A DNA stretch of 64,000 nucleotides from a virus. The stretch lies in UHGV virus genome UHGV-1353844; one strand, written 5' to 3'. Shown here piece after piece: positions 5,626-45,848 of this stretch (position 1 is its first letter; each line of letters opens with the position of its first letter). Position numbers and translations under genes: made by a program. The notes beneath the pieces are model-generated. The model did no database searches and was not told the DNA's origin. It saw nothing but the letters and a program-made list of their open reading frames with translations.

Positions 5626-6105
5626 ATGCTAAAACGCATTCTCGTGGTCGTTGCTTTTGTAATGACATTGGCAAGTTGTGCTATTCAGCCGAACGCAGAA
5701 GGTCAGTTCTCCACCGTACCTGTTGACCAACACGATATGGTCATTTACACCTGTACAGCTGCTTCTCAAGAATTCGACGATTTTAAACCGGTACCGTCTA
5801 GCCTAAAACTGATGCCCCTTTCGGTGTTAGTCATGGATACAGGGGCGAATTGGGTCGCTACATGGGACGAAGGTAAAATTGAATCTCCGCAACTTTATAA
5901 AGACCTGTTAGGCAAGGTGGACGGTAACTTAAACGTTGTTACCGGTGAGCGCTATTACCGTGTAAACGGGTTACTGTCGAAAACCCCAACGTTTGCGTAT
6001 TCTACCGTCAACTACAAAACGGGTGAAGGTAAAGGTGTAACGTTCTTCAGATGTCACGAAGGCAGCATTCCGGATACCGGCACTATGTTGCACCCGGTAG
6101 AATAA
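5626..6105 (+). CDS. lipoprotein (signal peptide plus lipobox LASC); moron-like opposite-strand gene
   Basis: MLKRILVVVAFVMTLASC N-terminus; ATG at 5626 with SD; the ORF-track start at 5566 is a TTG extension. Confidence 0.65.
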   Translation: MLKRILVVVAFVMTLASCAIQPNAEGQFSTVPVDQHDMVIYTCTAASQEFDDFKPVPSSLKLMPLSVLVMDTGANWVATWDEGKIESPQLYKDLLGKVDGNLNVVTGERYYRVNGLLSKTPTFAYSTVNYKTGEGKGVTFFRCHEGSIPDTGTMLHPVE

Positions 6106-23463: not shown

Positions 23464-26400
23464 TTATTGCTCCGGTTTTAATGGAACATCTTCTATCGTT
23501 AACGTAACGTCTAAGACCGCTTGACTGTGGTCAGTAATCGCTAAGTCACGATAAATATTAGCGTTGGGTCCGTAGGTTTTATAAGTAACGTAGAGACCTA
23601 ACGCACGTAGCACTTCTCCAGTGTAGAACCCATAAGCCATTCCGTTATCAGAAGACTCTCGAGCGGCTGGAGACCACGCTCCATTAATCGGCTTATTCGG
23701 AATTGAGGTAATCGTAAACCCTTCACCTAACTCCTTAATTGCCGCATTAACCACTTTTTCGTAGTTCGGATTCGTTGCACCGGCGAGTAATGCCCAGCAA
23801 CACCCTGCTAACCACAACCCACACATATGTGCGGTGAAGTCGTTTTCCACCCAAACAGCTTTATCCGGTGCTGTAGGGAACTCGTTAGGAGTGTGGCCGT
23901 TAAACCGATCCACAAACCCACCTAGCCAATTCACCCAGTTGTCAATATAGGTTGTTAACGCCTCGGGAACGTCTTTACCTCGCAGTTTCAGTTCGTACCA
24001 ACACCGACACGCAGCATGAAACGCGCGAGGCTGATACCCTGCCCAAGGATGGTCATCACCCCAATGGAACGTCGTCCAGGTATCCGCTTCTCCGTAGCTG
24101 TAGTTGTCCCAACGGTTCCAGATATAAGCTGCGCAACCAGGTCCTAATTCCCCAATTTGCTGTTGGTAAGCCAACTGCGAATCGTGCAGGAATTGAATCT
24201 GGTTATCTAACCACAACTTATACCGGTCGTCTTTGTGGATACTGTACATAAACGGATACTGATAACCTGGATAAGGCATCCCGTGCCAAGCACCTAACTG
24301 TTCTGAACCTTCTAAGTAGCTGTTCGTGAACGGTATCGTACCCGGACAGTACGCTAACGAATCCAATCGGTAATCTACAATCGTACAATCACCCACCTTT
24401 GCATCAAACTCTGCACCACCGCGTAAGGCAATACGGAAGGTTAAAATATAACCATCGTCTTTATTAAAGACCGGTGGGACATCGTTAACACAATAGTAAG
24501 CAAAGTGTGCATGGTCAACTGTGGAGTCAGGAAGAATCGTGACCTGATCCACCTTATCGAAATTCGGTGCTGAAGGTTTAGGGTCAGCGTCTGTGTGGTC
24601 TGGCTGATAACCGGAAAGTGTGGCTTCATCCGGATTCAACGTTACCTGACGCCATTCGTTGTTTGTGTTGGGTAACATCCACCACCAAAGCCAGTTATCA
24701 CTGTCGACTAAACGCAAGTTAAAATCTGCGTCTGCACGGTAAACAATAGAAACGGGTTTTACCTTCTCTTCAGCGGTTAACCAAAACCCGATAATAAACC
24801 CGGCACTGTCATCAGGAAATTCCGCTTCTACCACGGTACCCGCGCGACCATCGTAAATGCTATCCTCAAAACGTTCTTCCCACGTACAACCACCGTAGTC
24901 CGAACACGCACGGGCTTCAGCTATCAGGTAGTCTCCCCCTTCTGGGGTGGTAATACGGGAAAGTTGGCCTAAGTCAACATCGTACTGTTTAACGGTATTT
25001 ACCGTAGACCGAGGTAAGGTTAAACCGTACCAGTTTACCTCCTCGGTATCAGCTTTCGCAGGGTTAATGTTCACCATCACTTTACAGTAGACAGGATCGC
25101 CATTCTTACAAACTCCACCGTACGTGACACGTAGTTTAGAGTCTTTGTTAATCCTGAACCTAACCGCTTTTTGCTCCATAAAGTGCTGCGCCGCTTCAGG
25201 CACGTGGATGGTAATGTCTCCATTCTCATCACGGCCGTAGGTGGCACTTACGGTATCTGGGTAATCGAAATCGTACGAAATACCGTCAGTAAACGGTGTA
25301 TCCGCAGCGGTAGAACGACGGAAGAATTTATCTGTCGCATCAATATACGTGTACTCATGTGCGGTGTAGAAAGCACAGTCTAATGCTTGTTTGTATTTCT
25401 CTTCACCTGTGATTCGCCACAGCAAATAACAGGCGTCGATAAACCACAGTTCAGCATCAGCGGCGTTACCGTATTGGTTTTTCGACCCTAAGAACGGTGT
25501 GTGGACCGGACGGTTGTGCCACGGCTCATTACGTTTAAATTCGTAACCGCCGTGTTCGACAGGAAGTTTTACCGCGTAGTTAATTAAATAGACACCGTTT
25601 AACTGTGTGTCTTTTAACTGTACGGTACCTTTATCAGCGTCTGCTAATCCCGTCTCAATAATTTCACCATCCTGGATTTTGTTACCCGTCCAGGCAATTA
25701 TCCAGTCAACGTCGTGTTTAGGAGCTTTTGTTGCAGAGCCGCCCCAAAGCGGGGTGTAACCTGTAGTATTATTTAGCAGTGTTGGCCAATCGACCCAAGC
25801 TGTGCTTTCGTAAGGCTTATCAGGATTAGTAATAACGTGAGTTAAAACGTCTTCCCAATTAATCGACCCTTCTTTGTCTTCCTTGATAATCTGTACATCT
25901 GCGTTAATCGCGGCCCAGGCAGGGTGGCCACGATATGCAAACGTACAGATATCCAAATACTCTCCCCAGAAAGGTGCACCGTGCGGTATCTTACATTGGC
26001 CATTTGTAAACCTTACAGGAACACATTTATACCCGCCGTTGGTAGGTTCCGTAGGGTGAATAGGATAGTGTGCTAATACCGGTTCTTTCCCGTTTACTAA
26101 CCAGTTACAAATCCGACGCTGGGGTGTTGTCGGAATAGGCTGTCCGGCGTAGAAGTACGTGTTGTACGCATCCCAGGCGTGTTTCGCAGCATCTAACCAT
26201 CTTTCGTCTTTTGTTGCGATATACATGTGGCAATAACCGATAATGTGTAACGACTGACCCTCGGTCGTTGCGTCACCGTTCGGTTGGTATTCCGCCATGG
26301 TATCAGCGATGAAATGACGGTTATTCGACAGAACACCTTCTTCGTTTTGAATGTAATGATCGATATGTGCGTCGTTAGTCGTTCCCGTATTCCGGGTAAC

Positions 26401-26469
26401 GAAGGATTGGTGACCGTAAGCTAACGATAACGCGTAGCTAATCGCGTGACGCTGAAAATGTTTTCTCAT
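23464..26469 (-). CDS. large W/Y-rich enzyme-like tail protein (candidate polysaccharide-degrading depolymerase)
   Basis: 1001-aa ORF rich in Trp/Tyr/Asp; lies in-frame directly after anchor ORF, separated only by TAA. Confidence 0.65.
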   Translation of the reverse strand: MRKHFQRHAISYALSLAYGHQSFVTRNTGTTNDAHIDHYIQNEEGVLSNNRHFIADTMAEYQPNGDATTEGQSLHIIGYCHMYIATKDERWLDAAKHAWDAYNTYFYAGQPIPTTPQRRICNWLVNGKEPVLAHYPIHPTEPTNGGYKCVPVRFTNGQCKIPHGAPFWGEYLDICTFAYRGHPAWAAINADVQIIKEDKEGSINWEDVLTHVITNPDKPYESTAWVDWPTLLNNTTGYTPLWGGSATKAPKHDVDWIIAWTGNKIQDGEIIETGLADADKGTVQLKDTQLNGVYLINYAVKLPVEHGGYEFKRNEPWHNRPVHTPFLGSKNQYGNAADAELWFIDACYLLWRITGEEKYKQALDCAFYTAHEYTYIDATDKFFRRSTAADTPFTDGISYDFDYPDTVSATYGRDENGDITIHVPEAAQHFMEQKAVRFRINKDSKLRVTYGGVCKNGDPVYCKVMVNINPAKADTEEVNWYGLTLPRSTVNTVKQYDVDLGQLSRITTPEGGDYLIAEARACSDYGGCTWEERFEDSIYDGRAGTVVEAEFPDDSAGFIIGFWLTAEEKVKPVSIVYRADADFNLRLVDSDNWLWWWMLPNTNNEWRQVTLNPDEATLSGYQPDHTDADPKPSAPNFDKVDQVTILPDSTVDHAHFAYYCVNDVPPVFNKDDGYILTFRIALRGGAEFDAKVGDCTIVDYRLDSLAYCPGTIPFTNSYLEGSEQLGAWHGMPYPGYQYPFMYSIHKDDRYKLWLDNQIQFLHDSQLAYQQQIGELGPGCAAYIWNRWDNYSYGEADTWTTFHWGDDHPWAGYQPRAFHAACRCWYELKLRGKDVPEALTTYIDNWVNWLGGFVDRFNGHTPNEFPTAPDKAVWVENDFTAHMCGLWLAGCCWALLAGATNPNYEKVVNAAIKELGEGFTITSIPNKPINGAWSPAARESSDNGMAYGFYTGEVLRALGLYVTYKTYGPNANIYRDLAITDHSQAVLDVTLTIEDVPLKPEQ

Positions 26470-27586: not shown

Positions 27587-27961
27587 TTATTCGGTTAATT
27601 CTCCACACAACACAACGTCGATACCAAACATCATTCCCACTTCTTGAAGTTTGTTCGCCAGTAAGTGTCGATGACAAAACTTACCTGCGGGACAATAACA
27701 CATCAAAACCAAGTCATCGTGTCTGAGTAACGACACTAAAACTTCGGCATCAGTATCTAACAGTCGTTCGAGTTTGTACAAATACTTTATCGTGTACTCA
27801 CGTTCAGCGGCAGCGTCCTTGACAGAAGATTTATACGCCATTAGGAAATCCCAGTCGGGGGCGAGTTCCTTTCGACCTGACTTCACGGTGATATCCACCG
27901 CGTGAAATCCTTTCTGCTTAGCTAACCGCCACTTAGCGAGTTGTAGCGTCCAGATACGCAT
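27587..27961 (-). CDS. small conserved protein with CYC...C.HR motif (DUF488-like, tentative)
   Basis: LVLMCYCPAGKFCHRHLLA segment. Confidence 0.35.
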   Translation of the reverse strand: MRIWTLQLAKWRLAKQKGFHAVDITVKSGRKELAPDWDFLMAYKSSVKDAAAEREYTIKYLYKLERLLDTDAEVLVSLLRHDDLVLMCYCPAGKFCHRHLLANKLQEVGMMFGIDVVLCGELTE

Positions 27962-38430: not shown

Positions 38431-38802
38431 TTAGAACCCCTCGAGAACAGCTTTCACAAATTCATAAACCGTGCGTCGGTGTTCTTCAAGTGGATAAACA
38501 AACTTAGAATAATCGTTGTTCCAGACAACCGGATAGAGGTCACCGTCACAACTTAAATAGCTCTTACGAACCATGTAATAATCTAAACCTACACGGAAGT
38601 TTAACGACAAACTGCCGTGTTTACTACAAACGTGTAGCTGGAGCGATTTCACACCGTCACGGGTTGGCGTTTCAATCGTTTCCGCATACAATACATCCGA
38701 ACACTGTTCTATAACGCTAACGACATCTCTGAGGTTGTTGTGAGCATCAATGGTCGCTTTTCGGAGAGCGTCGGTGTATTGCTGAAGTTCTCGATAGAAC
38801 AT
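38431..38802 (-). CDS. hypothetical protein; overlaps upstream gene by 94 nt but has strong SD AGGAG
   Basis: 123-aa ORF. Confidence 0.5.
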   Translation of the reverse strand: MFYRELQQYTDALRKATIDAHNNLRDVVSVIEQCSDVLYAETIETPTRDGVKSLQLHVCSKHGSLSLNFRVGLDYYMVRKSYLSCDGDLYPVVWNNDYSKFVYPLEEHRRTVYEFVKAVLEGF

Positions 38803-39341
38803 CCTGCTAATCTCCTGTCTCTACCATAAGGCAGAGGAAATGCTTTGTGTTCGTATTCTGCAACGACGTAGGCAGGATAGAACAAAAGGTATTTATAGAA
38901 CGTGGCTAATGTAACGTCTTTCGGGGTAGCCAGAAAGTAATTAAGGTCAGGGTTATCTGGGAATGCAAAATGTATTCCGGTATACACCTGACCGTGATAT
39001 TCACCGTTAAAGGGCGTGACGGCACAACGGGGATGTGTTGGCTCAACGTGTAACCAACGACTCCCTACGTGATAAACACCACGTACCGTCGCGTTTCGTG
39101 TTTTACCCAAATAACGGCAACGAATATTCTTTTCCCACGCAGCACGTTGCGTGGGAGAACCCAGAGAAACAAACCGCGTTAAAGCTTCAGGTGTAAAGTA
39201 ATCAAAAATGCCGGTCGGTAAACACCAACACGCTTTATCGATTCGCACCACTCTCCAACCAGGACGAAAACCCACAGCGTAACGCTCTACACCAAAAGTA
39301 TATCTAGACCCGTCGTGAAACGGTACGAATCTTGCAGCCAT
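38709..39341 (-). CDS. hypothetical protein
   Basis: 210-aa ORF. Confidence 0.55.
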   Translation of the reverse strand: MAARFVPFHDGSRYTFGVERYAVGFRPGWRVVRIDKACWCLPTGIFDYFTPEALTRFVSLGSPTQRAAWEKNIRCRYLGKTRNATVRGVYHVGSRWLHVEPTHPRCAVTPFNGEYHGQVYTGIHFAFPDNPDLNYFLATPKDVTLATFYKYLLFYPAYVVAEYEHKAFPLPYGRDRRLAGCSIENFSNTPTLSEKRPLMLTTTSEMSLAL

Positions 39342-39342
39342 T

Positions 39343-39810
39343 TTAGATTTCCTTTATCATTTCCCTGCATTCGGTACGGAATCCCATTTTCTCATACAAG
39401 GAGATAGCTTTAACGTTGTTGTCTAACACATCCAGACTCATCCAACCACAACCTTTGGACTTTCCGTATTCACGGACTTTGTCCATAAGCGCACGCCCTA
39501 CCCCTTGAGAACGTGCTTCAGGAACCACATAGTAATTCCCGATGTAAACGAACGTGTCTTTTGAGCAAGAACCCAATGAGAACGTCATAAAGCCCAGAAG
39601 CTGTTCGTTATCATCCACCGCACACGCACAGAGATAATCTTGAGGCCAAATCTCTTCTAAACGTTCGATGGGGTTGAACGTGTCACGTCCAGTTAACTGA
39701 CTAATACGCACTTTCTCTTCTGCGAACAACATGTTGTGCAGTTTGAGTACCTGGTCGCCGTATAACTTTCCGTATTTACTGTCGGGTTTGAGAATAATAG
39801 TAATACGCAT
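39343..39810 (-). CDS. GNAT family N-acetyltransferase
   Basis: QGVGRALMDKVREYGKSKGC motif. Confidence 0.65.
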   Translation of the reverse strand: MRITIILKPDSKYGKLYGDQVLKLHNMLFAEEKVRISQLTGRDTFNPIERLEEIWPQDYLCACAVDDNEQLLGFMTFSLGSCSKDTFVYIGNYYVVPEARSQGVGRALMDKVREYGKSKGCGWMSLDVLDNNVKAISLYEKMGFRTECREMIKEI

Positions 39811-40943
39811 TATTTAACCTCAATCAGCGACAACCTGCACCATTCCAGTAAGCCTTCCGCAACACGCACTAACGAGGTAGTAAACGCATCTTCTAAACGC
39901 AGTGCGTTCTTATACCGAACGGTAGCATCGCGTAACTCACGACCGTCTAACGACTTCAGCTCTTTTTTCATTCGCTGAACTTCATCGTAAATACCGGTAT
40001 AACCAACGCTACGTCGCTTCGTACCACGCTGACGTAAAGCTCGGATAATTTTTTCAACGGCTTCGAGAGCTGAACCGATTTCGTGTAAGTTCAGAGATTT
40101 GATTGTGTGGCCAAAATCACCATCACGGGCAATCGCCCACTCAATCTTACCGTTGTCGTGTTCAACGACCACCACGTTACCTGGCCACGGATACGCTTTC
40201 ACCGTTTTAAACGGATCGATAATACCGAACAACCCTGCACTACGTTTAATCGCCCAGTTCGTTGAGCGGCCTACTTTCTCCAAGCCACTCTCAGTAACTT
40301 TCTTGCTCTTACCGATAATGGTGCGCGTTTTAACGGTATACTCGTTGACCATCGCATCCATTGCGTTCAGGTTCTTACTGAACTCAATACACGCTTTTAC
40401 GTTAGGTTTGTCTTCTAAACAAACTTTGGTCGTCCAGCTTCCCGTGTCGCAGTCAACCGGTTTTAAGGTGTCTTTGTCACCGATTAAACTTAGACGAGCA
40501 TTTAACTTTTGCAGTTTGCGCTCTAAGGTCGTTGCTTTAGACGTCGCTTCTTTTAATTCCTTAATGACTTCTTTACCCGCAACTTCGGCAAAATCCACAA
40601 AACGTAAAGCAAGTTGTTTGGAATGTTTACCTGCGAAATTCGCTGATGCTTTTGCACCTGCACTGGCAGCACGCCCTGCTACCCGACTTACGCCACGAAC
40701 CGCACGTCCGGTGAGTCGTGCAGCCGCTTTGCCTATCCCTTTATCAGGTTCCGTGTCTGACAAAAACTGCGCACGGTGCATCATGGCCGCAGACTCTGAC
40801 GCAACAACCACATCATCCAAAAGCCAACGTTTACGGATAGCAACGATAGCCGGATAATTGTCTTTTACTCCAATGGATTCTAACGCTACGAGTCGGTCGT
40901 AATCGTCACAAAGCACTTCTAAGTCGCTATCTAACGTTGACAT
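39810..40943 (-). CDS. hypothetical protein, tandem paralog of 40950-41834
   Basis: shared C-terminal block AYPxxGNVxVV...YKNxxxLEDAxTTxLxRVAxGLLxW; antisense ORF 40099-40857 is a shadow. Confidence 0.6.
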   Translation of the reverse strand: MSTLDSDLEVLCDDYDRLVALESIGVKDNYPAIVAIRKRWLLDDVVVASESAAMMHRAQFLSDTEPDKGIGKAAARLTGRAVRGVSRVAGRAASAGAKASANFAGKHSKQLALRFVDFAEVAGKEVIKELKEATSKATTLERKLQKLNARLSLIGDKDTLKPVDCDTGSWTTKVCLEDKPNVKACIEFSKNLNAMDAMVNEYTVKTRTIIGKSKKVTESGLEKVGRSTNWAIKRSAGLFGIIDPFKTVKAYPWPGNVVVVEHDNGKIEWAIARDGDFGHTIKSLNLHEIGSALEAVEKIIRALRQRGTKRRSVGYTGIYDEVQRMKKELKSLDGRELRDATVRYKNALRLEDAFTTSLVRVAEGLLEWCRLSLIEVK

Positions 40944-40949
40944 GATAAT

Positions 40950-41834
40950 TTACTCGTTTGCTTTGATCGTCGCTTTCACCCAGGCTAACAACCCATCCGC
41001 TACTCGGTCGAGTGCAGTGGTCACCGCGTCTTCCAACTTAATAACGTTTTTGTAAGCGCGTTTAACCTCGGAGATTTCATCCCGATCGACTTTGTACATT
41101 TTATCTTTAATCTTTTCAGCTTCTTGGTAAATACCGCTGTAGCCAAAAAGTCCGTTTTTCGCGTTGCGGGATTCCATGATGTCTGCAATCTTACGCACCG
41201 CTTTTAATGCCTGGTGACATTCACGCTCGGTGAGTGCGGCAATAGTGTCTTTATACATCCCGCCGTTACCGATACCGAACGTAGTCTTACTTTTACCCAG
41301 TTCACCCTGCGTAACGACGTAGACGTTTCCTGCTAACGGATACGCAGTAACTTCCGTGCCCATCAAATTAGGGATATACCCCATCGCACGATGAATCGCT
41401 GAACTACTGGAGTAGCTCAATTCTTTTAACATCCCGTCTTCAACTTTACGGTGAACTTCTTTAGGACCGATAGCCATCGGGTTAGTCACAACCAGGAATT
41501 TCTTCGCAGCCGCCTCGAACCCGTTTACGGAATCGACTAACTTAAGACATTCTTTTAAATCAGGGACGTCTTCGTAACACACACGCGCACACCAGGTGCC
41601 CGCAGGAACCACTTTGGCAGAAAACGTTTTGACGTCTTTCAACCGATCTTCTAATCGGTCAGCGTCTTCTTTCATCGTTTTCATTTTGCCGGTGACGACA
41701 CGCTTAGCATCGTGTAATCGGTTGTTCACTAAACCGATAATTTCCAAATAGACCTGGTGGCCATACGAGGCAGAAGAGTCGGTGCGATCGCGAGACTCCT
41801 GTCCCACCTGTTGGCCAATCCAACTACGACGCAT
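40950..41834 (-). CDS. hypothetical protein, tandem paralog of 39810-40943
   Basis: 294-aa ORF. Confidence 0.6.
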   Translation of the reverse strand: MRRSWIGQQVGQESRDRTDSSASYGHQVYLEIIGLVNNRLHDAKRVVTGKMKTMKEDADRLEDRLKDVKTFSAKVVPAGTWCARVCYEDVPDLKECLKLVDSVNGFEAAAKKFLVVTNPMAIGPKEVHRKVEDGMLKELSYSSSSAIHRAMGYIPNLMGTEVTAYPLAGNVYVVTQGELGKSKTTFGIGNGGMYKDTIAALTERECHQALKAVRKIADIMESRNAKNGLFGYSGIYQEAEKIKDKMYKVDRDEISEVKRAYKNVIKLEDAVTTALDRVADGLLAWVKATIKANE

Positions 41835-41870
41835 ATCAAGATTTCCTTTGTAAAACGGTTAAAGTCAAGT

Positions 41871-42437
41871 TCATAATAAACGAAGACTTTCCAACCACTT
41901 ATCCCGATCGGCGGTATGATAATAACAAGGAACATCGATTGACTTCGCGTATTTTACACCCATTGCGGTGCCACCTTTTGCGTTCCCGTGTTTGTCGTGG
42001 TCGCTAAAGTAATATACTGCGTCTACCGGTTCGTCTAAGCGGTCACCTGCGATGATGTTCAGATTACGACCGTGTAACGCCCAGGCAATCGGTGAGAGAT
42101 TATCTGGGTTTGGGTGGAGTGAAGCAACAACTGCTCGGTACTGCACGTCTTGTGGGATATAACGAAACTCTACCTTAGGGTGTATTTTCCCTAACCACAT
42201 TTTCTTTTCATCCGGCAGGTAACAAACGCTCTTAACGTCCTCGGTGCGTGCTAACATGAACTGAAGTTGGTCTGGGCCTTTATAACACCCTCCAGAACGG
42301 GTGGTAATCGTGTAGCCTTTCTTTCGTAAGATTCGAAACCCTTCCCGTAACGTGTCTAACATTTCCTGCATAACGTCTTCCGGTGTTTCTCGAGACCCGA
42401 TGATCGCGATTTTGTATTCTTTCATGGTCACCTCCAT
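41871..42437 (-). CDS. SLOG/DprA-like Rossmann-fold protein (tentative)
   Basis: KIAIIGSRE N-terminal motif and GTAMGVKYAKSIDVP. Confidence 0.4.
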   Translation of the reverse strand: MEVTMKEYKIAIIGSRETPEDVMQEMLDTLREGFRILRKKGYTITTRSGGCYKGPDQLQFMLARTEDVKSVCYLPDEKKMWLGKIHPKVEFRYIPQDVQYRAVVASLHPNPDNLSPIAWALHGRNLNIIAGDRLDEPVDAVYYFSDHDKHGNAKGGTAMGVKYAKSIDVPCYYHTADRDKWLESLRLL

Positions 42438-42452
42438 AAAGACCGTCGATAA

Positions 42453-42496
42453 TGAAAAAAAAGAAAAGTAGAGAGAGCCCGAAAGCTCTCTCTACC
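42453..42496 (-). terminator. rho-independent terminator
   Basis: gtagagagagc-ccgaaa-gctctctctac. Confidence 0.65.
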
Positions 42497-42507
42497 CACC
42501 GTTACTA

Positions 42508-43170
42508 TTACATCTCCAGGCCGCTTAAGACGACTGTCTCAACCAACGCCTGGCCCATCCACACTTCTAACTCACCGTCCAAATCCGCCAATGGTTTCTT
42601 GTTCAGTTCGTTATTGTAATTAAGACCGTCTAATGTCGTGTCGTTAATCACCTGCCCTAAGTGTAGAGGTAAGATGAATCGGTTTCTCGCACTATAAATA
42701 AAAGAGTCGCACTCGTAAACAACCACATAGCGTTCGATAGACTCGTCAAACTCAACGTGACACTGTGAACCGGTGTCCCAAGCGCGCGACAACACCATAC
42801 CTCGGTCTTGGCACATTTTCTCTACGGCGACTTTAGCGGAAGCTGCCCACGTATCGTAGTTCTTAGGTTGACCGTTTTCGAAATCAAACCAATCCAGATA
42901 CTTGGCAGGAATCTCAAGGAAGTCGTTCAGTTGAAGCTTTGTGTAGGTAATCAGTACCGCATCGTTTATGTCGTTACGGTTCGTTAACTTTACCTTATAG
43001 CGCCCTTCAGGTGTTGGGGCACCGACAAGCGTAACGTCTACCTTTTCAGCCGAAAGCTTTTTCCGTACACTGTCGCTGTTACAATAACTAACGAGATTAA
43101 GTAAGTTCTGTCTGTGGCCAACGTCGAAATCAATTACAAAAGACATACGAACTCCGTGGGGGCTAATCAC
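42508..43170 (-). CDS. hypothetical protein
   Basis: 220-aa ORF. Confidence 0.55.
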   Translation of the reverse strand: MISPHGVRMSFVIDFDVGHRQNLLNLVSYCNSDSVRKKLSAEKVDVTLVGAPTPEGRYKVKLTNRNDINDAVLITYTKLQLNDFLEIPAKYLDWFDFENGQPKNYDTWAASAKVAVEKMCQDRGMVLSRAWDTGSQCHVEFDESIERYVVVYECDSFIYSARNRFILPLHLGQVINDTTLDGLNYNNELNKKPLADLDGELEVWMGQALVETVVLSGLEM

Positions 43171-43559
43171 TAATACCCGTATAACGGATAACGTGCTGTG
43201 ATTTCATCACCCGCATAAAAGGTTAAACGTTGTATATTAATGTTTTTATTCGTATAAGGTACGGTTTCTAACGTCACCTTAACCATTGCAGAGCAGCTAC
43301 CCGGATCAACAAACTGATAAGTTCGACGTTTGATGTTCACCAGATAAAATCCACCCGCAGGGCATAAGTCCGTTTTGCCGTAATTCACCACCGCAAACTC
43401 ATCGTTTTGAACCACAGTGACGGGTTGGTCATCTGCTTTAAACACAACCGGTTTATCGCCAGGGACAGCGGGTTCGTAACGACTGATATCGTAAGGTTTA
43501 AAATCCGCTAATACAGAAAACGAAAGTAACATTAGAAATGGGGTAATAAAACGTTTCAT
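43170..43559 (-). CDS. secreted protein with signal peptide
   Basis: MKRFITPFLMLLSFSVLA N-terminus. Confidence 0.55.
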   Translation of the reverse strand: MKRFITPFLMLLSFSVLADFKPYDISRYEPAVPGDKPVVFKADDQPVTVVQNDEFAVVNYGKTDLCPAGGFYLVNIKRRTYQFVDPGSCSAMVKVTLETVPYTNKNINIQRLTFYAGDEITARYPLYGY

Positions 43560-44035
43560 CAGTTTACCTCATCGAGATAAACACGAAGCCAAGGCATTGA
43601 CTCTAAACGTGGCATCATATTCCGTGTGTTCGGAGACCAACGCAATGACTCGTGGTATTTCTTTTTGAAACGTTCCCAGTGATACGAGAACGGTTTGGGT
43701 TGAAAACCACGCTCTTTAAGCACTTCTTCCCAAACCAGGTCTTTAATGAAATCGTCAACTAACATTAACACCAGCACTTTCCATTTACTCCGGCGGTAGT
43801 GTCGTTGAAAACACTTACGGAGTTCTGAAAAGTCTTCTCGTTTACTGGAACGTACTACTGGGACAGCTTTCTCTTTATATTGCGAACAATGGCTGTGTTG
43901 TACGATCTTAACCGGAACGCCCCGAACCTTACCAGCATGAATATCCAGTTCGTGTTCGGGAACGATTTCAACACAACGTAATGCTTTTGCTCGATTGTCT
44001 TCTAAGCACCGCGTCTCATATTCGACACGTATCAT
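43559..44035 (-). CDS. hypothetical protein
   Basis: 158-aa ORF. Confidence 0.55.
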   Translation of the reverse strand: MIRVEYETRCLEDNRAKALRCVEIVPEHELDIHAGKVRGVPVKIVQHSHCSQYKEKAVPVVRSSKREDFSELRKCFQRHYRRSKWKVLVLMLVDDFIKDLVWEEVLKERGFQPKPFSYHWERFKKKYHESLRWSPNTRNMMPRLESMPWLRVYLDEVN

Positions 44036-44051
44036 TTTAGACTCTCAACGG

Positions 44052-44528
44052 TTAATAAATTTTATCCGCAACAGAGAGAAAGATGGGCGTGTTTTCGATA
44101 AAATCCACCAAATATCCTTCTTCCGGCGGGGCGTATGACGAAACAACGTTACCGTTCGTCATACGAAAATACCGACGAGAGTCGCTGGCGATATACCAAC
44201 GGTCAATCTGGTAGCCTTTTTTCGAAAAGAAACACAGGCCGTCAATGTTCGAAGGGTGGACACGACACGTCACCATTTGACGATCGGAATTCAGTTGAAC
44301 GTACTGCAATAAGAACGAACCCACACCGAAACGTCGAGAACCTTCTGCTACCACCAGATAGATAAGATTGCCCGGTTCCCAAATCGCGATACCGTGCGTA
44401 ATGTCGTCTTCTATCGCTAACGTAATACGAACAGGTGTTTCGCGTATCGAGTTTAAGTCCTTGATGTATTCGCGTAATTGTGGAAATTTAGCGGAGATTT
44501 TGTCTTCAGTAATATCTAACTGCTGCAT
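44052..44528 (-). CDS. hypothetical protein
   Basis: 158-aa ORF. Confidence 0.55.
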   Translation of the reverse strand: MQQLDITEDKISAKFPQLREYIKDLNSIRETPVRITLAIEDDITHGIAIWEPGNLIYLVVAEGSRRFGVGSFLLQYVQLNSDRQMVTCRVHPSNIDGLCFFSKKGYQIDRWYIASDSRRYFRMTNGNVVSSYAPPEEGYLVDFIENTPIFLSVADKIY

Positions 44529-45181
44529 TATTGTTCCCCAATTGACATAACGTTATTAACGAATTCAGCCCACGTAGTGTTCTCGCCGGAAGTAAATAAA
44601 CTGCTAAGCGGAACATTTCGGTGTTTTGGAATAACCGCATCGAGTTTATTTACTGGAACTTCGCTCCATAGCGCCCAGCCGTACAACCCCTCCACCGTTT
44701 TTCTCTCACCACGCAATACTGGTACCCACCAAGCAAACTGTACGAATCTTTTACCGCGACAAATTTTGAGGGTGGTGGTAAAACCGTGGTCTAACATCCG
44801 TACGTCATCAAATTTACAGTTAATTGAGAAAAGGCCGTAGCGGGTGAGTAATTTTCTTATCTGAAACGTCAGCTCAATCTGATAACTCTTCAGTTTATCG
44901 ACGTCCACATAAACCCGACCTTTCCCAACCCCGATTCCTTTCTGTTCTAAATACTCTGCGATTAACGCAGACGTACTCCCTTCTACACCAGGGCAATCTA
45001 ATCCGCCAGATAAAGGTACTGCATTATAATAACGATGCAGCGTCTCCTGGAAAGCCGTCAGCACAAATTCCTCGTCTTTAATAAAATCGATGACCTCCCC
45101 ATTAGAGGCGGACAACGGGGCAAGCTTCAATTCCCAGATAGGAATCAGTAGCGTTCTGGTCATTAAACGTAGTGGTTCCAT
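44528..45181 (-). CDS. hypothetical protein
   Basis: 217-aa ORF. Confidence 0.55.
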   Translation of the reverse strand: MEPLRLMTRTLLIPIWELKLAPLSASNGEVIDFIKDEEFVLTAFQETLHRYYNAVPLSGGLDCPGVEGSTSALIAEYLEQKGIGVGKGRVYVDVDKLKSYQIELTFQIRKLLTRYGLFSINCKFDDVRMLDHGFTTTLKICRGKRFVQFAWWVPVLRGERKTVEGLYGWALWSEVPVNKLDAVIPKHRNVPLSSLFTSGENTTWAEFVNNVMSIGEQ

Positions 45182-45224
45182 GATAAGTCTCCATGTTCAA
45201 GTCTCACAGTATGATCAAAAATTG

Positions 45225-45263
45225 TAAAATAAAAAGAAGAAAACCTCTACCCGAAGGTAGAGG
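45225..45263 (-). terminator. rho-independent terminator
   Basis: cctctacc-cgaa-ggtagagg. Confidence 0.65.
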
Positions 45264-45269
45264 TTGGTT

Positions 45270-45848
45270 TTATTTCGTTGTCTTTGTTTCCGTCTTCGCG
45301 ACGACCTGACCTGATTTCTCAAGTTTCTTCTCGACAACTTTGGTAGCAATCTCCAACGACTTGTAAGCCAATGTTTTAATCGGCCACGTTGCGAATACTA
45401 CCAGTCCAAACAGCGGAAGTAAGGATACAAACAACACTTCCATGCTGTCTTTTGGAAAGTTCTGATGCGTGTCGTACGCTAAGAAGCCTGTCACGACCAC
45501 AGTGGCGAGTGCAAGCAGAACAATAATGAACTTCTGTGCACCGGCAAGTTTTGGCCACAGCGTCAACATCGTTTCTTTGCTTACTTCGTCACCTAAACTC
45601 TCTACAGCATTTGTGGCTTGCTGCTGAAAGTTTTCCGCCATCTTTCCAATGTTCTCAAGAAGCGTTGGACGTAGCTCCGACAGAATCTTTGTACCTGACC
45701 GCGTTACGTCTACAGAGACGTCGTCACCGAAGTTGTCTTTGAGAATCTTAGACAGTTCTTCGGACTGCTCTTTACTTAACTTTCTGTTTCCTGCTTGGAT
45801 AAGAATGTCAAGAATTGCGGCTGACACGTCTTGTGTTGGTTGCGACAT
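45270..45848 (-). CDS. membrane protein with two C-terminal TM helices
   Basis: FIIVLLALATVVVTGFLAY and VLFVSLLPLFGLVVFATWPI. Confidence 0.55.
   Translation of the reverse strand: MSQPTQDVSAAILDILIQAGNRKLSKEQSEELSKILKDNFGDDVSVDVTRSGTKILSELRPTLLENIGKMAENFQQQATNAVESLGDEVSKETMLTLWPKLAGAQKFIIVLLALATVVVTGFLAYDTHQNFPKDSMEVLFVSLLPLFGLVVFATWPIKTLAYKSLEIATKVVEKKLEKSGQVVAKTETKTTK

Follow-up and report, generated by a model that had tools for sequence, protein, structure and literature searches.

The gene analyzed in our study lies on the minus strand at 41871..42437 of the window, by which we mean the whole stretch of 64,000 nt of viral DNA. It almost certainly encodes a stand-alone minimal SLOG domain of the DprA clade, which belongs to PHROG 768 and is the ortholog of gp92 of Salmonella phage SPN3US. 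A preliminary description, which stated no strand, had read the product as a SLOG/DprA-like protein. This reading is borne out by the match to PHROG 768, by the match of a profile of 107 relatives to DprA and by the presence of both DprA motifs. The two strings named at that time, KIAIIGSRE and GTAMGVKYAKSIDVP, are found at residues 9-17 and 156-170 of an uninterrupted ORF of 188 aa. This length results from an upstream ATG at 42437, which overlaps a GGAGGT Shine-Dalgarno sequence located 5 nt before a second ATG (M5, position 42425). Orthologs start with MK.YKIA, and two public contigs carry a 97%-identical gene that was called with a length of 184 aa. Therefore, the true start is probably M5 and the probable coding sequence of this minimal DprA-like SLOG protein spans 41871..42425 on the minus strand, with a product of 184 aa.

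As judged by profile comparison, the similarity of the protein to its family is far beyond chance. PHROG 768, whose public annotation is 'DprA-like DNA recombination-mediator protein', was matched with E=2.4e-42 (residues 5-179 to profile positions 1-173 of 191). A word-indexed search returned 41 close homologs, nearly all of them from SPN3US-like phages or unannotated contigs. When clusters at 50% identity from metagenomes were searched exhaustively with a profile, 4,750 cluster representatives matched at E<=1e-3, of which 3,416 also passed E<=1e-10. Moreover, among 50,697 phage records, 443 were matched by tblastn with one query. At the protein level the top public matches (97% and 74%) both stem from unannotated metagenome contigs, and the closest named relative is the protein of Erwinia phage Asesino. 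The window protein shares family and invariant motifs with the PHROG 768 proteins SPN3US gp92, the Asesino protein and Phi92 gp047. Since this family has already been annotated in public genomes and discussed in two comparative-genomic papers, the gene adds a member to a known family, as an ordinary ortholog of a jumbo-phage gene that already bears an annotation.

Structure prediction, which had been suggested as a check, resulted in a three-layer alpha/beta Rossmannoid with a parallel sheet that matches SLOG members structurally. The AlphaFold2 model, built with 24 homologs, has a single domain with a pLDDT of 94.4 and a pTM of 0.90. The viral models closest to it are variously labelled members of this phage family, and YspA/DUF2493 proteins form a distant second tier. 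The Gly-rich loops of the SLOG superfamily, i.e. G14 and S48-G49...G54-x-D56, as well as the GG(S/T) cap at G155-G156-T157 are invariant or nearly so. DprA cannot be told apart from other SLOG families by structure alone, but by sequence it can. A PDB sequence search with the single protein or with a profile of close homologs returned noise only. In contrast, the profile of 107 diverse relatives, with pairwise identities of no more than 50%, matched chains of DprA structures with E values from 1e-5 to 4e-4. PF02481 was matched by 56 of these 107 relatives, all below threshold (listed scores of 15.8-24 bits versus a cutoff of 29.6). Alignment of the family to E. coli Smf by hhalign extended over 147 columns at E=6e-4 and paired family positions 21-180 with Smf residues 106-252. 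All motifs were in register, namely IIGSRE with VVGSRA, RSGGCYKGPD with TSGLARGID, SLHP with SEFP and GGT with SGS; ALHGRNLNIIAG of the family aligns to NFPRRN-RIISG of Smf.

Hence the DprA profile comparison that had been proposed was positive for the broad profile, whereas the LOG and YpsA comparisons proposed alongside it gave no Pfam match at the thresholds used. A sequence-profile match to the YpsA (DUF1273) clade was absent as well. YAcAr (PF10686) was matched weakly over 31 residues only (15.3 bits versus 28.2, E=0.017), and NCBIfam and PADLOC returned nothing for the window protein. YspA/YAcAr (PF10686, DUF2493) and YpsA are members of the same superfamily and are found together with the family in giant polyvalent proteins, but their motif set differs and the YAcAr match stays below threshold. 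Iyer et al. placed most viral SLOGs in a YpsA-like clade (PMC9503650), while the sequence signal of the phage family described here points to DprA.

The evidence for a DprA-type pocket lies in two short motifs. Wang et al. defined the signatures of ssDNA-binding DprA as "G-S/T/A-R" and "F/L/Y-x-x-R-N/D", which in HpDprA correspond to G50-R52 and F140-N144 (PMC3950713). A crystal structure and mutagenesis revealed that R52, F140, R143 and N144 of HpDprA, together with Y108 and G164, form a pocket that receives a thymine (PMC3950713). In the window protein the first signature is G14-S15-R16 (42390..42398, minus strand), the phosphate/ssDNA loop after strand 1, which aligns to the GSR of E. coli Smf and to the GTR or GSR of solved DprAs. 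Among the 107 relatives G14 is invariant, Ser or Ala is found at position 15 in 104 and R16 is kept in 106. The second signature, the base-pocket motif L121-H122-G123-R124-N125 (42063..42077, minus strand), aligns to FPRRN of Smf and places H122 at the Pro of DprA. Here R124 is present in 107/107 relatives, N125 in 105/107, Leu, Phe or Met at position 121 in 103/107 and H122 in 101/107. The pocket aromatic of DprA (SEF/Y-P) is matched by H108-P109 (42111..42116, minus strand), conserved in 105/107 and 99/107, respectively, with H108 aligned to the Phe of SEFP in Smf. Thus, where bacterial DprA has its pocket aromatic and, in FPRRN, a Pro, the family has His, and in the alignment H108 and H122 are family-specific. 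The helix-cap motif G155-G156-T157 (41967..41975, minus strand), which is the counterpart of SG(S/T) of DprA and of the GGxGT part of LOG, is conserved at each residue in 107/107. Besides, a basic residue is found at position 119 in 74/107 relatives and adjoins the position of K137 in HpDprA, part of the phosphate clamp of DprA; in the SPN3US-like clade this position is Trp and not Lys or Arg. The pI of the family is mildly basic with a median of 8.4.

Despite this pocket, the protein as predicted is not a canonical DprA. PF02481 was not matched even at E<=10, and the score for TIGR00732 was at most 21 bits versus a threshold of 191. Compared to the bacterial DprA/Smf domain (PF02481; 3MAJ, 4LJK/4LJR, 3UQZ), the coverage is limited to the core, i.e. 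Pfam model positions ~44-200 and residues 106-252 of the 374 of Smf. The N-terminal part of the DprA domain, which in full comprises ~205 residues, is missing, and the protein stops ~30 residues past the GGT helix. Estimated from residue offsets, P183, L196 and F205 of the HpDprA dimer interface would fall at or beyond its C-terminus, and the region of DprA for dimerisation and RecA contact therefore seems to be missing. SAM-like and winged-helix domains are absent from the window protein and from all 28 multidomain relatives scanned. Since the dimerising and RecA-loading parts of DprA are missing, a classical role in transformation or recombination is unlikely, and the protein probably does not act as such a mediator.

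Nevertheless, a genuine recombination mediator would load UvsX or host RecA on ssDNA in the course of recombination-dependent replication and thereby replace UvsY, which is missing from these jumbo phages. Such a function has been proposed for jumbo phages, and Iyer et al. described the jumbo-phage copy in 2021 as DprA/Smf and a possible extra ssDNA-binding protein (PMC7824862). It would agree with the DprA-clade fold and motifs, with the public annotation of PHROG 768 and with the nucleus-localised UvsX that is encoded by Asesino (PMC11724907). We consider this function unlikely given the truncated alignment, the position of the dimer residues and the missing domains described above. Moreover, the gene occurs in T4-like phages too, and T4-like phages typically encode UvsY. 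Neither fusion nor clustering with recombination genes was seen in the samples examined: a DprA accessory or recombination domain was found in 0/28 multidomain relatives and a recombination module around the stand-alone copy in 0/8 phages. A further argument comes from the EVADES study, in which the putatively related phage protein ORF83 lacks the dimer and RecA residues of DprA and has a low AF3 score for interaction with RecA (10.1101/2025.06.06.658234). ShosA, a DprA-like antitoxin, does work via ssDNA and RecA, but ShosA/PsyrA (ShosTA/PsyrTA; PDB 8ZVA) differs from the window protein in being ~300 aa long, dimeric, RecA-binding and paired with a PRTase toxin (PMC12961424). The window protein had no PADLOC match, and no PRTase-like match was found among the flanking ORFs scanned.

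At the nucleotide level, megablast found no match to the region among the 50,697 deposited phages, and the window therefore represents a new phage lineage. In its proteins and in the order of its genes it resembles two nucleus-forming jumbo phages, Salmonella phage SPN3US and Erwinia phage Asesino. The stretch 38709-45848 corresponds collinearly to SPN3US gp96 to gp86, with 57-60% identity and conserved gene order. RefSeq tags were converted to the original SPN3US gp numbers through exact molecular masses (gp83, 20.0 kDa; gp84, 32.9 kDa; gp91, 23.6 kDa; gp94, 41.6 kDa; gp95, 17.6 kDa; gp98, 22.4 kDa). By this mapping the ortholog of the DprA-like gene is gp92 (YP_009153386, 22.8 kDa) and its phiKZ_IP-like neighbour is gp94. 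An assignment to gp51/gp52 beside gp53/gp54 had also been considered and was ruled out by the mass matching.

The DprA-like gene is located between the orthologs of the head gene gp91 and of gp94/gp95. In SPN3US, gp91, the phiKZ_IP-like gp94 and the GNAT protein gp95 are virion proteins, of which gp91 and gp94 were assigned to the head, while gp92 is missing from the virion proteome determined by mass spectrometry (PMC5694885 Supplementary Table 1). Just upstream of the DprA-like gene, between it and the gp91 ortholog, we identified an intrinsic-terminator-like hairpin on the gene's own (minus) strand (42466..42497) with a 14-bp stem and a TTCTTTTTTT tail. It leaves only ~28 nt for any promoter of the DprA-like gene. 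SPN3US carries a hairpin at the same position with another stem sequence (L001, 5917-5943), and a near-identical contig, L010, has a hairpin identical to that of the window (5928-5959). The conserved position with differing stems suggests selection for a transcript boundary or an RNA structure before the gene. The gene thus stands among head genes, is separated in transcription from the one upstream of it and encodes a product that is not packaged.

These data bear on a role as head or ejection protein that would be delivered with the DNA. Apart from the position between head-gene orthologs, such a role could draw on the observation of Iyer et al. that ADPr-processing genes are often found among morphogenesis genes (PMC9503650). 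It is nonetheless very improbable since gp92 was not detected in virions in which its neighbours were detected, the conserved terminator splits the gene from the upstream head gene, and the gene occupies early or accessory regions in other phages. We rejected the reading as a virion protein on the basis of the SPN3US proteomics.

Several other features of this cluster were observed. Directly downstream of the DprA-like gene, the window has an additional phiKZ_IP paralog compared to the SPN3US relatives, a 294-aa internal-head-protein paralog of PHROG 2497 (40950-41834, minus strand). It is missing from the 97%-identical contigs L010 and L011, which have a 150-nt gap there, and its slot is taken by the 90-aa gp93 in SPN3US. 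The slot downstream of the DprA-like gene is variable. Genes for GNAT acetyltransferases are found on both flanks of the cluster (39343-39810 and 44052-44528, both minus strand). Since gp95 (17.6 kDa), the SPN3US ortholog of the GNAT encoded at 39343-39810, was detected in virions by mass spectrometry, an acetyltransferase appears to be packaged. The ortholog of gp90, a 129-aa protein of PHROG 5248 (43170-43559, minus strand), starts with MKRFITPFLMLLSFSVLADF; this N-terminus looks like a signal peptide, which would be odd within a cluster of head proteins. A perfect hairpin with a 10-bp stem (45242-45265), located between the genes for proteins of 192 aa and 217 aa, scores as a terminator on both strands.

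The domains fused to the family point in a direction other than that of bacterial DprA, as the fusion partners of the phage family are ADP-ribose-processing domains. We examined the best 150 of the ~4,750 representatives, of which 29 were longer than 255 aa and 28 were scanned. NADAR was found in 9 of these 28 multidomain relatives, DUF4326 in 10, Macro in 3 and extra YAcAr SLOG domains in 6; 16 of the 28 carried at least one of NADAR, DUF4326 and Macro. Six giant relatives of 1,000-1,600 aa (P0048, P0051, P0070, P0074, P0120 and P0130) combine several kinds of SLOG (DprA-like, YAcAr, LDcluster4), and NADAR is present in P0048, P0051 and P0130 as well. In eight other phages, stand-alone copies occupy gene arrays of early or accessory type. 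The copy of the N4-like phage Piffle lies inside the first 2 kb and thus in the early region, that of Kassivere is found close to Nampt and PRPP synthetase, and that of a Phapecoctavirus has a Sir2 gene at a distance of ~5 kb. The copies of T4-like phages stand beside head genes, and one of them adjoins an RNA ligase. The possibility that the T4-like homolog is AdfA/gp61.2 (anti-DarT) was dropped, as the copies adjoin head genes or RNA ligase and are unmentioned in the AdfA papers. A Macro-like gene was found less than 7 kb away in 3/8 phages with a home-made HMM built from two sequences, and this linkage is weak evidence for function. With home-made HMMs no NADAR or Macro gene was found in the 64-kb window.

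A 124-aa ORF at 27587-27961 (minus strand) matched Pfam DUF488-N3a, the 'active DUF488-N3 subclade', with E=3e-11 and 44 bits versus a cutoff of 27. A home-made HMM of DUF4326 also matches this ORF weakly, and the DUF488-N3a and DUF4326 folds have a Cys/His motif in common when the sequences are read by eye. Since DUF4326 is the commonest fusion partner, the phage may carry a partnership of the DprA-like protein with a DUF488/DUF4326-like protein, encoded by two genes at a distance of 14 kb. An ORF of 1001 aa (23464-26469, minus strand), rich in Trp, Tyr and Asp, was noted upstream of the DUF488 gene.

In view of these findings we tentatively favor an accessory, non-packaged factor that, rather than loading RecA, would bind phage ssDNA attacked by the host and protect or mark it. 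The G14-S15-R16 loop would contact the phosphate, H108 would stand in for the stacking aromatic of DprA, L121, R124 and N125 on the following helix would hold the inserted base, and G155-G156-T157 would cap the pocket. Such a DprA-type pocket is expected to bind nucleic acid in single-stranded form or, failing that, a nucleotide moiety. As the ssDNA contacts of DprA are kept, a basic residue occurs at position 119 in 74 of the 107 relatives and the fused enzymes act on ssDNA, the base of a single-stranded nucleic acid is most likely the ligand. The protein would be made in the infected cell and kept out of the virion. In the cell it would bind intermediates of phage ssDNA and protect or mark them against, for example, ADP-ribosylation of the DarT type or defence nucleases. 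It would work beside separate ADP-ribose-removing enzymes, which elsewhere in mobile elements are fused to the same domain. NADAR and DarG-type macrodomains have been described to take ADP-ribose off ssDNA bases, and Asesino encodes AdfM, a nucleus-localised macrodomain of the DarG type (PMC13309987). Also in favor of this function are the action of ShosA via ssDNA and RecA (PMC12961424) and the EVADES study, which lists the phage proteins ORF83, annotated as DprA/Smf, and ORF55, a DNA ligase, as inhibitors of the nuclease-bearing Avs3 of Salmonella (10.1101/2025.06.06.658234). Counting against protection of ssDNA, a free nucleotide could occupy this pocket as well, as indicated by ThsA, LOG and the docking of AMP in ORF83, and the SLOG arrays of several giant relatives fit a panel of small-molecule processors better. 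The Trp at position 119 in the SPN3US-like clade, the view of Iyer et al. from 2022 on soluble ADPr and the negative search of the window for NADAR and Macro genes count against it as well.

The main rival is therefore a protein that cleaves or sponges a soluble nucleotide, such as AMP, ADP-ribose or a signal of the cyclic ADPR type, and thereby blunts NAD/ADPr-based immunity (Thoeris-like or NADase). The SLOG of ThsA binds cADPR, and LOG binds AMP. Iyer et al. explicitly predicted that viral SLOGs process or sense soluble ADP-ribose derivatives, arguing from fusions to Macro and NADAR, and noted that viral SLOG domains are experimentally uncharacterised (PMC9503650). This rival would also account for the NADAR, Macro, DUF4326 and additional SLOG domains that we found fused to the family as well as for the neighbourhoods with Nampt/PRPP synthetase and Sir2, and H108 and H122 could be catalytic residues or phosphate ligands. 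For ORF83 an AMP site comprising R89/N90/T112/D114 was proposed with AMP docked, homologs fused to DUF4326 were reported, and the top PDB match was LOG and not DprA (10.1101/2025.06.06.658234). Likened by these described features alone, ORF83 fits the phage DprA-like family: it is small, has R89-N90 and has DUF4326-fused homologs. The family relative P0039 has R89/N90, and a CWT-x-D motif of the family, located ~20 residues past RN, matches T112-x-D114 of ORF83. The source of ORF83 was not found in the accessory-gene papers of Silas et al.

In spite of these points we regard the cleavage or sponging of a soluble nucleotide as possible but less likely. The LOG signature PGGxGTxxE is incomplete in the family and reads K-G-G-T-A-M-G, with Ala, Gly or Ser at the position of the Glu in 107/107 relatives. 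Compared to LOG/PpnN-type phosphoribohydrolases and TT1465/TM1055 (PF03641), the window protein thus has neither the catalytic Glu nor a Pfam match, and Pfam LOG or YpsA was not matched at any threshold used. Moreover, the best-scoring neighbours in sequence and structure are the non-enzymatic DprA and ShosA, and the conserved residues are exactly the ssDNA contacts of DprA.

An extension of the preferred ssDNA-binding function takes the two histidines into account. With H108 and H122 the repurposed pocket might conceivably serve as a reader or eraser of a modified, e.g. ADP-ribosylated, base on phage ssDNA, which we consider quite unlikely. Such a reader or eraser would work with NADAR, Macro and DUF4326, which are fused to the domain elsewhere and separate in this phage clade, as in the case of AdfM. 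If true, it would also explain how a DprA-like protein is able to counter defences directed at DNA, such as Avs3.

The family is widespread and is passed on in databases as "DNA recombination-mediator". This label is probably too specific. It rests on a real DprA-type pocket, but everything that DprA uses for RecA loading appears to be missing from the protein, and domain architectures indicate that evolution has repeatedly fused the domain to ADP-ribose-removing enzymes. If the family acts in DNA-protecting or ADP-ribose-linked counter-defence, it would be a widespread player in phage anti-immunity, and a systematic annotation error would be corrected.
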